Below, one piece after another: positions 14,289 to 50,781 of a stretch of DNA of 64,000 nt; position 1 is the stretch's first letter, and every line of letters begins with the position of its first letter. The translations under genes were made by a program, and so were the position numbers. The stretch covers positions 16,477 to 80,476 of the forward strand of contig JAMPGX010000008.1 in the NCBI GenBank assembly GCA_023663725.1, in the 5' to 3' direction. Origin of the DNA: a bacterium (GTDB lineage: Bacteria; Bacillota; Clostridia; Lachnospirales; Lachnospiraceae). The notes below the pieces were generated by a model, which saw only the letters and a list, made by a program, of their open reading frames with translations, did no database searches and was not told the origin of the DNA.

Positions 14289-14314
14289 GCAAGCCCTCCT
14301 TGTTGTCAATCTGT

Positions 14315-14546
14315 TTACTTTGCTAGTGTCATTGTGTACATTGTATATTCCAACGCGGGCACGCTCTCGCTTCGTTCTCGCCGTAGCGGTACATAAGATG
14401 CTATAATACAGCATCGAGGGTTGCTAGCAACCCTAGGTACCGACGGCTCGTGGTGTTACGGTTGCAAACCGTAACACGAAGCCCGCTTATGGAATATACA
14501 ATATACACAATTCGGTACTGGCAGTAATGGGTTTCGCAATTGTTTA
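14315..14546 (-). mobile_element. MITE-like structured element, copy A (one TIR lost)
   Basis: Reverse complement aligns to 49995..50204; TIR TTTCGCAATTGTTTA at 14532-14546; two extra hairpin inserts. Confidence 0.85.
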
Positions 14547-14558
14547 AATATGTTTTAT

Positions 14559-14710
14559 TAGGCATTTGTAAAACTTAGTTACTTTGCTAGTGTCATTGCG
14601 AACATTGTATACTTCAATGAAGGCACGCTCTCGCTTCGTTCTCGCCGTAGCGGTACATAGGATGCCAAAAAATGGCATCGAGGTTTGTTAGTAACCTTGG
14701 TACTGACGGT
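14559..14710 (-). mobile_element. MITE-like element, partial copy B, tandem to copy A
   Basis: Near-identical core GGCACGCTCTCGCTTCGTTCTCGCCGTAGCGGTACATA; degenerate TIR TAGGCATTTGTAAAA at 14559; 12 nt from copy A. Confidence 0.75.
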
Positions 14711-14753
14711 GTCACATGATCTGCAATAATTTAATGGCTCTATAAATTGAAAG

Positions 14754-18444: not shown

Positions 18445-18587
18445 TAGGTAATTGCGAAACGACTCTTTTCTGGAACAGGGAATGGGCAATATATACAAAA
18501 TAAGGGCGACTTGCCACTGCATCGGAGCCCGTTTTTGTATATATTGACCAGTCCCGTCACTTGCGGAGAGAGTTTCGCAATTGACTA
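18445..18587. mobile_element. 143-bp MITE-like element, copy C (same TIR family, different internal palindrome)
   Basis: TIRs TAGGTAATTGCGAAAC / GTTTCGCAATTGACTA; 11-bp direct repeat TATCTGATGAT at 18434-18444 and 18588-18598. Confidence 0.88.
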
Positions 18588-31805: not shown

Positions 31806-32165
31806 TTACCTTGGTATCAGATCATTCATCTTGAGTATTTCTTCTATTGTATCCATGCCGTCCTGCAATCTTGCGAGTTTCTTGTTGGTTTCTTTTTCAA
31901 AAAGCTTTTGCGAAAGCTGTAATTCGTTCAACTGTTCCTGCATTTTGTCCTGCTTGACTTCCATTGCATCCATGCGATTTTCCATCCTATCAAGCCTGGA
32001 ATCCACTTTGTCAAGCCTGGAGTCCACTTTGTCAAGCCTGGAGTCCACTTTGTCAAGCCTGGAGTCCACTTTGTCAAGCCTGAAATCCACTTTATCAAGT
32101 CTGGAATTCACTTTATCAAGCTGACCGATAATTTCCTGAAACATTTCTTTGGTTTCCTTGTCCAT
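31806..32165 (-). CDS. 119-aa coiled-coil protein with (LDKVDSR)n heptad repeat
   Basis: GGGAGG RBS; in-frame 21-bp repeats. Confidence 0.85.
   Translation of the reverse strand: MDKETKEMFQEIIGQLDKVNSRLDKVDFRLDKVDSRLDKVDSRLDKVDSRLDKVDSRLDRMENRMDAMEVKQDKMQEQLNELQLSQKLFEKETNKKLARLQDGMDTIEEILKMNDLIPR
31990..32121. repeat. 21-bp tandem repeat, 6 copies plus a partial
   Basis: Unit TCAAGCCTGGAGTCCACTTTG, head-to-tail with no spacers. Confidence 0.95.
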
Positions 32166-49027: not shown

Positions 49028-49092
49028 GTTTTGCCTGATCTGCTTTGCATAATTTTTCCGATTATATGCACACTAACAAATAAACGATTCTG

Positions 49093-49408
49093 TAGGCGAT
49101 TGTGAAACTGTTTATTCCCGCGAGCAATGAGGAAAATAGCCATGCTCGCATGGATATTTGACGAATATCACGAGGTTCAAATCCCCTGTTACTTGTAGTG
49201 GGGTCTTTGATTGCCAGTACCGAATTGGACATAGTGTATTTTCCATAAGCGGACTCTTTCGAGCTGTCGGTACTTAGCGAGGTTTGCCGAATTCATTCGG
49301 CACGAGCTTAGTACCGTTACAGTGAGAACGAAGCGAAAGCGTGTCCGCGTTGGAATATACACTATGTCCAATGACACTCGCAAAGTAACCAAATTTCGCA
49401 AACGTCTA
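49093..49408 (+). mobile_element. MITE-like element, copy D (older, with ~100-bp hairpin insert)
   Basis: Degenerate TIRs TAGGCGATTGTGAAA / TTTCGCAAACGTCTA; flanks TAAACGATTCTG and TAAACAAGTCTG match 10/12. Confidence 0.8.
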
Positions 49409-49457
49409 TAAACAAGTCTGTCCCCCAAGGAGACATAACCTGATAACAGATAAAGGA

Positions 49458-49901
49458 GTGTGCAAGACAATGGAAGACGATACAATCAAACTGCTGAGGG
49501 AGTGCAACGCAGGGGTGAAAATGGGAATCACCTCATTGGATGATGTGATGGAGCATGTGAAGGACGAGCATCTGAAGGAGCTGCTGATTCAGAGTAAGGA
49601 GACTCATTCCCAGCTGGGCAGCGAGACACATGAATATCTGACAAGATGCCACGACGAGGGCAAGGAGCCCGCGGCCATGGCAAAAATGATGTCCTGGATG
49701 AAGACCAATATGAAGCTGGGCGGCGAGGACTCCGATCGGGTGGTGGCTGACCTGGTGACTGACGGCTGCAACATGGGGGTCAAGTCCCTGTACAAATATC
49801 TGCATCAATACCAGGCGGCCGACCAGGACAGCAAGAAGCTGACGGAAAAGATCATCCAGGCCGAGGAGACTCTGATCAAAGATCTGCGGGAGTATCTTTA
49901 G
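49458..49901 (+). CDS. Ferritin-like four-helix protein (DUF2383-like)
   Basis: Two helix-pair repeats (ECNAGVKMG / DGCNMGVKS); family call is tentative. Confidence 0.65.
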   Translation: MCKTMEDDTIKLLRECNAGVKMGITSLDDVMEHVKDEHLKELLIQSKETHSQLGSETHEYLTRCHDEGKEPAAMAKMMSWMKTNMKLGGEDSDRVVADLVTDGCNMGVKSLYKYLHQYQAADQDSKKLTEKIIQAEETLIKDLREYL

Positions 49902-49947
49902 GGAAACATTTATCTGGATGCATACCTCGACAGCCGCCATCTGCCTG

Positions 49948-49976
49948 TTGACAGCTGGAAAAAATTTGCTTATACT
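49948..49976 (+). promoter_or_regulatory. Sigma70/sigmaA promoter of the downstream gene
   Basis: TTGACA-17-TATACT. Confidence 0.75.
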
Positions 49977-49994
49977 GAGGATAGAGATAATTCA

Positions 49995-50204
49995 TAGACA
50001 ATTGCGAAACTCTTTATTGCCAGTACCGAATTGTGTATATTGTATATTCCATAAGCAATGCCCTTTCGAACCGTCGGTACTTAGATGCTGTATTTAGGCA
50101 TCTTATGTACCGCTACGGTGAGAACGGAGCGAGAGCGTGCTTGCGTTGGAATGTACAATGTGCACAATGACACTCGCAAAATAACTGGCTTTCGCAATTG
50201 TCTA
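49995..50204 (+). mobile_element. 210-bp MITE-like element, copy E (intact)
   Basis: Perfect 15-bp TIR TAGACAATTGCGAAA / TTTCGCAATTGTCTA; perfect 12-bp direct repeat AGAGATAATTCA at 49983-49994 and 50205-50216. Confidence 0.93.
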
Positions 50205-50238
50205 AGAGATAATTCAGTTGGAAAGGAAGTGGATTTTG

Positions 50239-50781
50239 ATGGGACTGAGCGTGATGGGGATCGGCAGTATGCCTGATAATGCAAGCTACGGCTTATACGG
50301 TTCTGTCAGCGGCGCAGCGGGTACAGGAGCGGCGAAGCGGATGCTTCCAGTTGGCGCGGCGGACGCTGTCGGGGCAGCGGGCGGCTCCAGAGGAGTGGAG
50401 GACAGCCGTGCGGCCAAGCGCGTAGGCAAAGCGGAGTGCCAGACCTGCAAGTCGAGAAAATATAAGGATGGTTCCGATGAGATGGTCAGCTTCAAGTCGG
50501 CGACGCACCTTTCTCCCCAGGCGGCGGGGTCGGCGGTGATGGCCCACGAGCAGGAACATGTCTCTAACGCATACAAAAAGGCTGCGCTGAATGACGGCAA
50601 GGTGTTACAGGCCAGTGTGCAGCTGCATATGGGTGTGTGTCCGGAGTGCGGGCGCAGCTATGTGGCGGGCGGAACCACCAGTACCAAGATTCAGTACAAC
50701 GAGGACAATCCATATGAGAAGAATGCCAAGTCCCTTCAGGCGGAGGCGTTCAAGGGCAACAATGTGGATGTGGCCGTATAG
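50239..50781 (+). CDS. SprA-related putative zinc protein
   Basis: CQTC, AHEQEH (HExxH), CPEC; GAAAGGA RBS; family call is tentative. Confidence 0.65.
   Translation: MGLSVMGIGSMPDNASYGLYGSVSGAAGTGAAKRMLPVGAADAVGAAGGSRGVEDSRAAKRVGKAECQTCKSRKYKDGSDEMVSFKSATHLSPQAAGSAVMAHEQEHVSNAYKKAALNDGKVLQASVQLHMGVCPECGRSYVAGGTTSTKIQYNEDNPYEKNAKSLQAEAFKGNNVDVAV

Follow-up and report, generated by a model that had tools for sequence, protein, structure and literature searches.

Transposons of the IS4/IS231 group and the mobile insertion cassettes (MIC231) make target duplications of about 10-13 bp and include non-autonomous derivatives that keep only the ends. The Correia/NEMIS, ERIC/IRU and YPAL repeats are known for RNase III processing and for orientation-dependent effects on mRNA. 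These repeats, found in Neisseria (Correia/NEMIS) and in enterobacteria (ERIC/IRU and YPAL), are MITEs that have terminal inverted repeats and make target duplications; located in transcribed intergenic DNA, they form long RNA hairpins and can change how stable or how strongly expressed adjacent mRNAs are (PMC3184786). The bcr1 repeat of the Bacillus cereus group is a MITE-like intergenic repeat with flanking direct repeats; it has been reported to be transcribed, and compensatory changes keep its structure at the RNA level (Okstad 2004; Klevan 2007; Kristoffersen 2011, via PMC3184786). REPINs, which RAYT transposases mobilize, are hairpin-shaped non-autonomous elements in which compensatory changes on both sides are common, the choice between ssDNA and mRNA as the folded molecule having been left open (PMC3116915).

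The repeats D and E of the window, the 64-kb stretch of DNA analyzed here, are copies of a MITE of about 210 bases with TAGACAATTGCGAAA ends, for which no published description was found in the literature. They very probably represent a non-autonomous DNA transposon with a strand-specific folded interior that is kept by selection. The host of the roughly 130 copies is probably Acetatifactor.

Ends, target duplications and relatives of the MITE

The host genome (3.6 Mb) contains 98 near-full copies and about 33 partial ones. The terminal inverted repeats of E read TAGACAATTGCGAAA ... TTTCGCAATTGTCTA, with TAGRCRWTTGYGAAAC as the end sequence of the MITE, and the ends, which are conserved among the copies, exist as two alleles, TAGACAATTGCG and TAGGCGTTTGCG. 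Target duplications measure 9-14 bp (mode 11) and have no common target motif; a duplication of at least 9 nt with at most one mismatch is retained in 28 of the 98 copies, compared with a chance rate of 0.5%. The ORFs that traverse E are all short (59-67 codons). The family therefore has the features by which MITEs are recognized, namely terminal inverted repeats, abutting target duplications and a small, non-coding, multicopy body. Neighboring pairs are arranged head-to-tail in 14 cases and inverted in 2, with spacers that are mostly of duplication length. Solo 3' fragments are commoner than solo 5' fragments; a target-primed, SINE-like retroelement was considered and rejected, as in none of 10 solo 3' fragments did the truncation point and the 3' flank share a repeat. 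An IS200/IS605, PATE or REPIN-type single-strand element was likewise rejected because the MITE makes target duplications, of 9-14 bp and with no shared target motif.

The search for a mobilizing partner covered the host genome and four relatives, and no transposase with the MITE termini was found in them. The draft host genome yielded no autonomous IS with matching termini among terminal-repeat pairs 0.6-3.5 kb apart, and its sole DDE_Tnp_1 gene (contig C43) lacks the MITE ends. The DDE_Tnp_1 genes of two relatives also gave nothing as a MITE partner, and the genes adjoining solo MITE ends are ordinary genes, with no partner among the ORFs there. The plasmid and phage collections provided no useful match for the MITE. 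A second family with the same termini is 143 bp long, has a different palindromic interior and is present in at least eight copies in the host genome, with a clear duplication of its own in six or seven of them. Transposition does not require the folded core, since the 143-bp family is mobile on identical termini despite lacking it.

Members of both families within the window are listed in Table 1. Copy A lies right against the ribosome-binding site of a gene for a solute-binding protein, and no duplication flanks the truncation point of copy B. A BLAST search for the nested insert, with positions ~16-93 of D, returned matches at C22:151058, C1:89676 and C14:45991. The GGTTCAAATCC-like sequence of this insert raised the question of a tRNA origin, for which ARAGORN found nothing.

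Table 1. Positions of MITE copies and their parts in the 64-kb window
Feature	Position	Strand	Basis or remark
Copy E, complete 210-bp MITE	49995..50204	+	Best nhmmer match of the family, 233 bits
E terminal repeats	left 49995-50011, right 50188-50204	+	Read directly
E target duplication AGAGATAATTCA	49983..49994, second copy 50205-50216	.	Exact 12-nt direct repeat abutting both ends
E main helix P2, 5' arm, 22 bp, ATTGTGTATATTGTATATTCCA	50030..50051	+	Pairs with 50147-50168
E main helix P2, 3' arm, TGGAATGTACAATGTGCACAAT	50147..50168	+	Pairs with 50030-50051
E core: P3, P4, P5 (CGGUAC/GUACCG), apical hairpin P6 (slot 2, module Ha), side hairpin	50052..50146	+	Cross-genus alignment A2, pair counts, covariance model R1
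E side hairpin GC[GAGA]GC	50129-50136	+	
Copy D, same MITE family, apical module Hb, GAAA side-hairpin loop	49093..49408	+	
D left end	49093-49118	+	Split from the remainder by a nested insert of ~90 nt
D duplication, diverged, 12 nt	TAAACGATTCTG 49081-49092 / TAAACAAGTCTG 49409-49420		
Nested insert within D	49119..49205	+	Unrelated short repeat with other genomic copies
Terminator-like hairpin in the nested insert of D	49184-49203		
Copy A, slot 1 Hi, slot 2 Hc+Ha	14309..14546	-	Right terminal repeat lost
Spacer between A and B	14547-14558		12 nt
Copy B, 5'-truncated (model positions 72-210)	14559..14714	-	Head-to-tail with A
143-bp MITE, same termini, different palindromic interior	18445..18587	+	11-nt duplication TATCTGATGAT

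A covarying rod with exchangeable hairpins

The interior folds into a rod of 140 nt, made up of a long P2, a short P3, a three-way junction with a side hairpin, P4, an asymmetric U / CUA bulge, P5 and a replaceable apical hairpin. The core runs in the order CGUCGGUACUUAG, hairpin, GUACCGCUACG and then a GC[GNRA]GC side hairpin at the three-way junction, and it stays while the sequence of every helix changes. The original prediction, which was drawn from a few copies in the window, had held that the two arms of the main helix change together between D and E and that the deviations from Watson-Crick pairing in E and A are G-U on the sense strand. Both points are borne out by direct reading: the main helix of E has only three deviations, all U-G pairs, in copy A (minus strand) the sole deviation is a T-G, and the D arm ATTGGACATAGTGTATTTTCCA pairs with TGGAATATACACTATGTCCAAT; of the five positions at which it departs from E, four are compensated, one T-T mismatch being left.

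This pattern extends to the family. Among 61 host-genome copies, pairing reached 98.1% in P2, 99.4% in P3, 98.9% in P5 and 100% in the side hairpin, compared with 27-49% in slid controls, and 11 of the 22 P2 pairs had changed on both sides. Five covariation measures for these copies all lay above 500 of 500 shuffles, and RNAalifold identified compensatory changes at 31 of 38 pairs. The terminal repeats showed no covariation. Folding energies were far better with an arm's own partner than with a swapped one (P4, -7.0 vs -3.0; P6, -8.3 vs -4.3; outer arms, -56 vs -20 kcal/mol). A set of 51 sequences from other genomes gave the same signal, with 86.3% paired positions (70.1% when shuffled, 28-40% in slid controls) and a covariation score of 0.437, compared with 0.149 for shuffled sequences. 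In both sets none of 500 shuffles attained the observed score, and the family thus shows the covariation by which structured non-coding RNAs are recognized.

The apical slot (slot 2) occurs in five alternative states (Hb in 41 copies, Ha in 27, Hc+Ha in 9, Hd in 5 and Hc in 2), and slot 1 is empty in 71 copies and occupied by Hi in 9 and Hii in 4, in agreement with the earlier proposal that different hairpins occupy the same two slots. Module combinations among copies are reticulate, and the modules are shuffled among MITE copies; they were never found outside the MITEs, and an origin as independent mini-elements was rejected on these grounds. The stretch CGCTACGG(T/C)GAGAACG(G/A)AGCG, which that proposal had singled out as largely retained, is indeed retained among copies, and spans the 3' arms of P5 and P4, with the CUA bulge between them, and the beginning of the GNRA hairpin. 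P4 also has a conserved tandem G-A/A-G (51 of 61 copies); as this tandem lies four Watson-Crick pairs away from the CUA bulge, the geometry does not fit a kink-turn there.

The core across Lachnospiraceae

A covariance model and an Rfam search had been proposed as checks on the original prediction, and both were carried out. The covariance model (R1) found matches in 64 of 151 sampled genera, often with at least 26 copies per genome. In a search on the + strand only, 97 of 109 cross-genus instances had a side loop of the GNRA type, with GAAA (31), GAGA (23), GCAA (14), GCGA (11), GGGA (9) and GGAA (9) as the loop types. The first G and last A of this loop are invariant in the 51-sequence alignment, and the 2-bp side stem is 100% paired and covaries (GC/GC 70, GU/AC 19, AU/AU 2). 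In 10 of the 51 cross-genus sequences P5 contains a C-A mismatch that on the opposite strand would read as G-U.

No Rfam 15 family, including Clostridiales-1, the HEARO/omega RNAs and known ribozymes, matched in the window at gathering score, and nothing relevant appeared at E-values up to 10 around D and E or up to 1 on 15 diverse loci. The core had no match among 2.9 million viral contigs, and no associated protein gene was found near its single-copy instances.

Strand asymmetry and genomic setting

The fold is strand-asymmetric. In E, the folding energy is -94.7 kcal/mol for the + strand (z = -9.7) and -77.6 kcal/mol for the - strand, and among 98 host-genome copies 64 fold more stably on the + strand, as do 50 of 77 instances across genera. 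P2 cells in the 98 copies are 90.9% Watson-Crick, 6.8% G-U and 1.3% A-C, a G-U to A-C ratio of about 5:1, and parsimony placed 60 Watson-Crick to G-U events in P2 vs 23 to A-C. G-U exceeds A-C in the inner helices, the bias is reversed in the terminal helix (A-C above G-U), and G-U is rare (2%) in the apical hairpin. The excess is 4:1 in sense and antisense copies alike and is located in inherited, older variants; rare variants have G-U to A-C counts of 21:19 in sense and 3:7 in antisense copies, numbers that are too small for a split by orientation. As the excess lies in inherited variants and the rare ones are unbiased, selection is visible on propagating lineages and not on individual host transcripts. 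Nor is it demonstrable on each inserted copy.

The original prediction of function as a folded single strand, either RNA or ssDNA, had been coupled with a test set beforehand, in which a larger alignment lacking significant covariation or strand bias would count against it. The attempted refutation failed, given the strong covariation within the genome and across genera and the strand-asymmetric fold. The strand bias itself held in part: it was sustained by the GNRA loop, inner-helix G-U and + strand stability, but not by rare variants or by the long arms across genera, where the cross-genus sample had no G-U asymmetry (384 vs 385) and the bias was seen only in the Acetatifactor genomes examined.

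The usual site of the element in the host genome is in 5' leaders, where its right end lies some 30 nt upstream of the start codon. Relative to flanking genes, 34 intergenic regions have the element in sense and 15 in antisense (p = 0.009), and all six copies beside lagging-strand genes are in sense. A third of copies are antisense to their neighbors; these keep the fold equally well (0.5 vs 1.3 non-canonical pairs of 39), with no better preservation of sense copies. Orientation has no link to replication direction (54/97). Element-bearing regions are divergent in 18 of 78 cases (12.7% genome-wide) and convergent in 2 of 78 (9.1% genome-wide). No preference for the sense orientation was seen in a crude cross-genus sample (sense, 16; antisense, 22; convergent, 20; divergent, 12). 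A strong promoter-like site lies 19 nt upstream of E. Placement of the copies at transcription starts was rejected, since only E has a strong upstream site and promoter scores at left and right ends do not differ among the 98 copies. No family-wide promoter adjoins the elements in these 98 copies, and no conserved terminator turned up within or beside the element.

Interpretation and alternatives

Our best explanation is a transposase-mobilized MITE with a structured passenger that is selected as a folded + strand and acts as RNA in a cis-acting leader, a statement that as a whole we hold with about even confidence. We lean towards RNA as the folded molecule, and the specific role in leaders is tentative. 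A transposase supplied in trans would recognize the 15-17-bp terminal inverted repeats and make staggered cuts of about 11 bp. The passenger module would be the 140-nt rod, under purifying selection as the folded + strand, and it would function as RNA upon transcription of the element together with neighboring genes. In 5' leaders the transcript might close on itself and juxtapose the two copies of the target duplication, forming a compact cis-acting leader module such as a binding or processing site, a 5' stabilizer or an insulator; such action would make insertions tolerable or useful. RNA is favored over a replication-linked DNA strand because orientation follows flanking genes and not replication direction, and because the elements are enriched between divergent genes and depleted between convergent ones.

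These observations might also reflect a fold at the DNA level, with the + strand acting as ssDNA or a cruciform in copying, targeting or tolerance, like REPINs, IS200/IS605 ends or integron attC sites. Such a fold would be consistent with the G-U (G-T) excess being located in inherited and not private variants, independently of host-gene orientation, with the similar structural integrity of sense and antisense copies, and with the scarcity of G-U in the apical hairpin. GNRA-type minihairpins closed by C-G, of the d(GCGAAAGC) type, are hyperstable in DNA as well, and the head-to-tail arrays suggest that insertion is directed to the end or structure of an element already in place. Single-strand transposons of the HUH or Y1 kind, however, do not produce a duplication, and the clear 9-14-bp duplications with shared terminal inverted repeats indicate an ordinary double-strand transposase. 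Together with transposition of the 143-bp family on the same ends without the core, an orientation unrelated to replication direction and terminal repeats that do not covary, this makes a DNA-level role unlikely, even though REPINs have similar compensatory hairpin changes (PMC3116915).

The complementarity of the long arms might instead be unselected, produced by arm-to-arm gene conversion or quasi-palindrome template switching with recombination among recently expanded copies. In P2, double changes equal single changes in frequency, and do so on terminal branches too (51 doubles); roughly half of the types of double change are transversion pairs without a wobble intermediate, such as U-A to G-C, and the reticulate modules imply frequent recombination among copies, which would inflate event counts. 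This process would nevertheless explain neither the 5:1 excess of G-U over A-C in P2, nor the escape of the outermost repeats of the palindrome from homogenization, nor the invariant unpaired nucleotides and GNRA loop of the asymmetric core; covariation across at least 50 genomes in helices of 2-8 bp (P4, P6 and the GNRA stem), which are too short for recombination, also argues against it, and we consider it improbable. A trans-acting RNA gene family that the MITE merely disperses, acting as a sponge for an RNA-binding protein, as an antitoxin-like RNA or as the guide or cofactor of an enzyme from a mobile element, would fit an asymmetric core whose three-way junction, GNRA loop and invariant bulges recur in 64 of 151 genera with differing termini and arms, the conservation of this core independently of neighboring-gene orientation and the very high copy numbers. 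This role is quite unlikely given the lack of a conserved promoter or terminator in or next to the element and of an associated protein gene near single-copy instances, and the absence of the motif from viral contigs.

Beyond the cis-acting RNA leader that we prefer, it is possible, if rather doubtful, that the core is a new functional nucleic-acid module, either a protein-binding or catalytic RNA or a proliferation-boosting folded-strand signal, that has spread through Lachnospiraceae on transposons with different termini. A core module riding on differing transposons would account for its own invariance in the face of changing arms, apical hairpins and ends. The structured module is in any case undescribed, occurring in roughly 40% of the Lachnospiraceae genera sampled, and matches no catalogued RNA family. 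Gut Lachnospiraceae are abundant and poorly annotated, and may carry up to 100 or more structured elements per genome, mostly in gene leaders in the genome studied here. The MITE affects gene calling and assembly, with contigs that break within it, and may influence how many genes are expressed. Should the core be a functional RNA, it would be among the most widespread uncatalogued bacterial RNA motifs and a clear case of a structured RNA dispersed by DNA transposons. If the fold instead serves mobilization, it would represent a structure-dependent step in a classical duplication-making transposon.

Comparison with known systems

The MITE resembles the IS4/IS231 group in duplication length, and differs in that no transposase with its termini was found in the host genome and four relatives. 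Its cognate transposase may be IS4/IS231-like, judging from duplication length alone; the terminal sequence is presumably unlike that of IS231. REPINs have no classical terminal inverted repeats or target duplications and are moved by a Y1 (HUH) enzyme, whereas the present family makes clear duplications and therefore falls outside the REPINs. In Correia/NEMIS, ERIC/IRU and YPAL the hairpin derives mainly from the terminal repeats and there is no conserved asymmetric core; the fold described here is in the interior, and its terminal repeats do not covary. There is also a likeness to bcr1, which is likewise an intergenic MITE-like repeat with base-pair compensation, but which is about 155 bp long, makes 5-bp duplications, folds as a cruciform of two stem-loops and occurs in one species group (PMC3184786). 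The present element, by comparison, combines 9-14-bp duplications with a single rod, a three-way junction, a GNRA hairpin and exchangeable hairpin modules, and its core is found in many genera.

Fold and covariation within the genome

Copy E of the D/E family of ~210-bp MITEs folds as a single rod of -94.7 kcal/mol (z = -9.7), compared with only -77.6 for its complement. Its core, made up of helix P3, a three-way junction with a GC[GNRA]GC side hairpin, P4, a bulge and P5, surrounds a replaceable apical hairpin. The original prediction, that the MITE interior is a conserved RNA-like fold whose paired arms change together, was confirmed in an alignment of 61 genome copies: both sides were altered in 39 of 70 pairs, and each of five covariation measures exceeded all 500 shuffles. 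Standard pairing reached 98.1% of cells in the main helix P2, 99.4% in P3, 98.9% in P5, 100% in the side hairpin, 73.7% in P1 and 76.8% in P1b, and fell to 27-49% when partners were slid by 1-3 columns. The lack of covariation in P1 is attributable to two terminal-repeat alleles rather than to decay.

P4 exists in two versions, CGAACCG/CGGUGAG and GAAAAACG/CGUUUUUC. Tandem G-A/A-G mismatches inside this helix in 51 of the 61 copies (alignment columns 78-79 with 153-154), which may form a sheared G-A motif, are replaced by Watson-Crick pairs in the other version. The internal loop at the P2/P3 junction (CCA-UAAG / C-GU-UGG; window 50052-50054 and 50145-50146) loosely resembles the 11-nt GNRA tetraloop receptor (CCUAAG / UAUGG), and is kept as CCAUAAGCAG in the clade with the D/E termini.

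The suggestion that different hairpins occupy shared internal slots was borne out by slot counts. The apical slot holds Hb (GCCGAAU...AUUCGGC) in 41 copies, Ha (GAUGC...GCAUC) in 27, Hc plus Ha in nine, the stem-deleted Hd in five and Hc alone in two; in the slot that separates P3 from P4, nine copies carry Hi and four Hii, and 71 have no hairpin. Apical modules, P3-P4 slot contents and P4 versions combine freely among copies, and no module hairpins were found outside the elements. Module exchange is most simply explained by recombination among copies.

Features of the MITE copies and of the folded element
Feature	Window position (strand)	Position in E	Remark
Copies A and B	14309-14714 (minus)		Head-to-tail
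Second MITE family, one copy	18445-18587		143 bp; termini as in D/E, unrelated palindromic interior GGGCAATATATACAAAA...TTTTGTATATATTGACC
Copy D	49093-49408		MITE family member
Copy E	49995-50204		Complete element
Near-consensus promoter-like site	49948-49976		TTGACA-17-TATACT; ends 19 nt upstream of E
Antisense promoter-like motif	49354-49383 (minus); 14320-14349 and 14584-14613 (plus)		
P1		1-17 with 193-210	Terminal repeats
P1b and P1c			Further helices of the rod, listed between P1 and P2
P2		36-57 with 153-174	22-bp main helix
P3		61-67 with 145-150	
Side hairpin		135-142	GC[GAGA]GC at three-way junction
P4		73-79 with 122-128	
Tandem G-A/A-G in P4	50068-50069 and 50120-50121	74-75 with 126-127	
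Asymmetric bulge			U opposite CUA, between P4 and P5
P5			CGGUAC with GUACCG
P6			Apical hairpin

Persistence of the core in other genera

BLAST of E against relatives located members of the family in several species belonging to the same genus. The core was retained with a different P2 sequence in one relative (G014), and persisted in others (G006-G018) with all helices different in sequence. At least 119 contigs match the exact pattern CGTCGGYRCTTAG-N15-45-GYRCCGYTRCG; among the matches listed, nearly all are from Lachnospiraceae (including Acetatifactor, Roseburia, Hungatella, Mediterraneibacter, Waltera, Lacrimispora, Agathobacter, Butyrivibrio and Dorea) and a few from other groups. Of 151 genera of the family searched with a covariance model of the core, each represented by one genome, 64 gave matches, often with at least 26 copies per matching genome and in places as tandem arrays; single-copy instances are likewise intergenic rods. 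Two such arrays in another genus (G175:C59:125134-125726 and G175:C21:12431-12905) have periods of 164 and 187 nt, and head-to-tail stacking as in A/B therefore also occurs in other genera. The core was not found among IMG/VR viral contigs.

Covariation extended across genera: among 51 non-redundant sequences, pairing held in 86.3% of cells versus 70.1% after shuffling, and the covariation score of 0.437 (shuffled 0.149) was equalled by none of 500 shuffles. Each of the five variable pairs in P6 showed double-sided change in 17-25 of the 51 sequences, and hardly any of their cells were unpaired. The side-hairpin stem also covaries (G-C 47, A-U 4 at one pair; C-G 42, U-A 8, U-G 1 at the other); its loop is GNRA in 97 of 109 cross-genus instances, with first G and last A invariant in the alignment. 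Duplex energies of own versus swapped partners support P4, P6 and the outer arms.

Mobility of the family

Iterated nhmmer searches across all 49 contigs of the genome (3.6 Mb) recovered 98 near-full-length copies among a total of 131 loci. E has the termini TAGACAATTGCGAAA ... TTTCGCAATTGTCTA, is flanked on both sides by the exact 12-nt direct repeat AGAGATAATTCA, and is separated from D by a small DUF2383-like gene. Of 98 copies, 28 keep flanking duplications that are 9-14 nt long (mode 11) and differ at no more than one position; when flanks were swapped between copies, such a match arose in only 0.5% of cases. Head-to-tail orientation was observed in 14 of 16 neighbouring pairs, with spacing mostly of 9-15 nt, equal to the duplication length. 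The terminal repeats have two alleles, TAGACAATTGCG and TAGGCGTTTGCG, which are intermixed between the left and the right ends, including those of copies whose duplications are perfect. The 143-bp family has at least eight genome copies, and most of these are flanked by 10-12-nt target duplications of their own. Because of these duplications, the head-to-tail spacing, the termini shared with the 143-bp family and the mixed alleles, the D/E family bears the hallmarks of a MITE mobilised in trans by a conventional transposase, and it shows three of the four defining features of the MITE class. No transposase gene bearing the element's termini was found in the draft genome. To our knowledge, duplications of such length are made only by the IS4/IS231 groups, to which we assign the transposase by inference from this length. 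A retroelement-like origin is unsupported, since none of ten solo 3' fragments had a duplication at the truncation point.

Five contigs (C5, C8, C10, C25 and C28) terminate ~53 nt into a copy, and the family thus breaks the genome assembly. D itself carries a nested insert of ~90 nt (49119-49205), a dispersed repeat that also occurs at C22:151058, C1:89676 and C14:45991. Within the insert are a GGTTCAAATCC-like stretch and, at 49184-49203, a hairpin with a T-run that resembles a terminator; ARAGORN called no tRNA in it. Elsewhere in the window, a 21-nt TCCACTTTGTCAAGCCTGGAG-like unit occurs in seven tandem copies (31960-32148).

Strand asymmetry and the nature of the folded molecule

Strand bias, expected alongside covariation from the original prediction, was present in the larger set of 98 copies. 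P2 cells were 90.9% Watson-Crick, 6.8% G-U, 1.3% A-C and 1.0% other; on the tree of copies, where recombination inflates all event counts, changes from Watson-Crick to G-U outnumbered those to A-C by 60 to 23 in P2, while the terminal helix showed the opposite bias (50 versus 105). The + strand folded more stably than its complement in 64 of 98 copies (mean margin 4 kcal/mol, p = 4e-5). The 4:1 G-U excess was equal in copies sense (105:26) and antisense (43:10) to neighbouring genes, and absent among rare variants (21:19 and 3:7, respectively). Since the excess is independent of orientation and disappears among rare variants, the bias arose in propagating lineages and not after insertion.

This lineage-level signature would agree with a fold required for transposition as single-stranded DNA; that explanation, however, is at odds with the target duplications, with the mobility of the 143-bp family, which lacks the core, and with the absence of replication-strand bias (orientation is independent of GC skew and gene-majority strand, 54-55 of 97). 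If the arms had become complementary by mutational processes alone, the many double transversions in P2 would be accounted for, but not the G-U excess, the unconverted termini or the covariation in helices of 2-8 bp.

Covariation and strand asymmetry support the proposed function as a folded single strand, and we favour RNA as the molecule. GNRA loops and G-U excess are typical of RNA. Also counting for RNA is genomic placement: in co-directional intergenic regions of this genome, 34 had sense-only and 15 antisense-only copies (p = 0.009); all six copies adjoining minority-strand genes were sense to them; 23% of element-bearing regions lay between divergent genes (12.7% genome-wide) and 2.6% between convergent genes (9.1% genome-wide); and the right end of sense copies lay a median of ~30 nt ahead of the next start codon. 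A further point for RNA is the promoter-like site upstream of E, given which the leader preceding the gene at 50239 would start with E; this site is not a family-wide pattern. Against RNA count the equal fold quality of antisense and sense copies, the lack of a general promoter association, a crude ORF-based survey of 70 loci in other genera (16 sense, 22 antisense, 20 convergent, 12 divergent), the lack of G-U asymmetry in other-genus arms (384 versus 385), the G-U frequency of only 2% in P6, and a P5 C-A mismatch in 10 of 51 cross-genus sequences (CGGCAC with GUACCG; columns 29 with 60), which on the opposite strand is G-U. GNRA-type minihairpins are, moreover, also stable as DNA. A trans-acting RNA family is possible, but would be one lacking any promoter, terminator or partner gene.

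An antisense-strand promoter-like motif (TTGCGA/TTGCTA, 18 nt, TATATT/TATACT; 9/12 matches) recurs among the elements. Pointing out through the left end, it could serve as a promoter for the gene downstream wherever a copy lies antisense.

Comparison with known elements

A literature search found no description of this MITE family, which belongs neither to the IS200/REPIN class nor to any Rfam family, no variant having an Rfam match. It works in the manner of other structured MITEs: bcr1 from Bacillus, for which transcription and compensatory changes were reported (PMC3184786), and the Correia and ERIC elements, and its hairpin compensation resembles that of REPINs (PMC3116915). Its unusual feature is the invariant asymmetric three-way-junction core, which members of a bacterial family have in common despite replacement of the arms, the apical hairpins and even the termini. 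The D/E elements form a family that is undescribed but of a known kind, and the structured motif they carry is uncatalogued.
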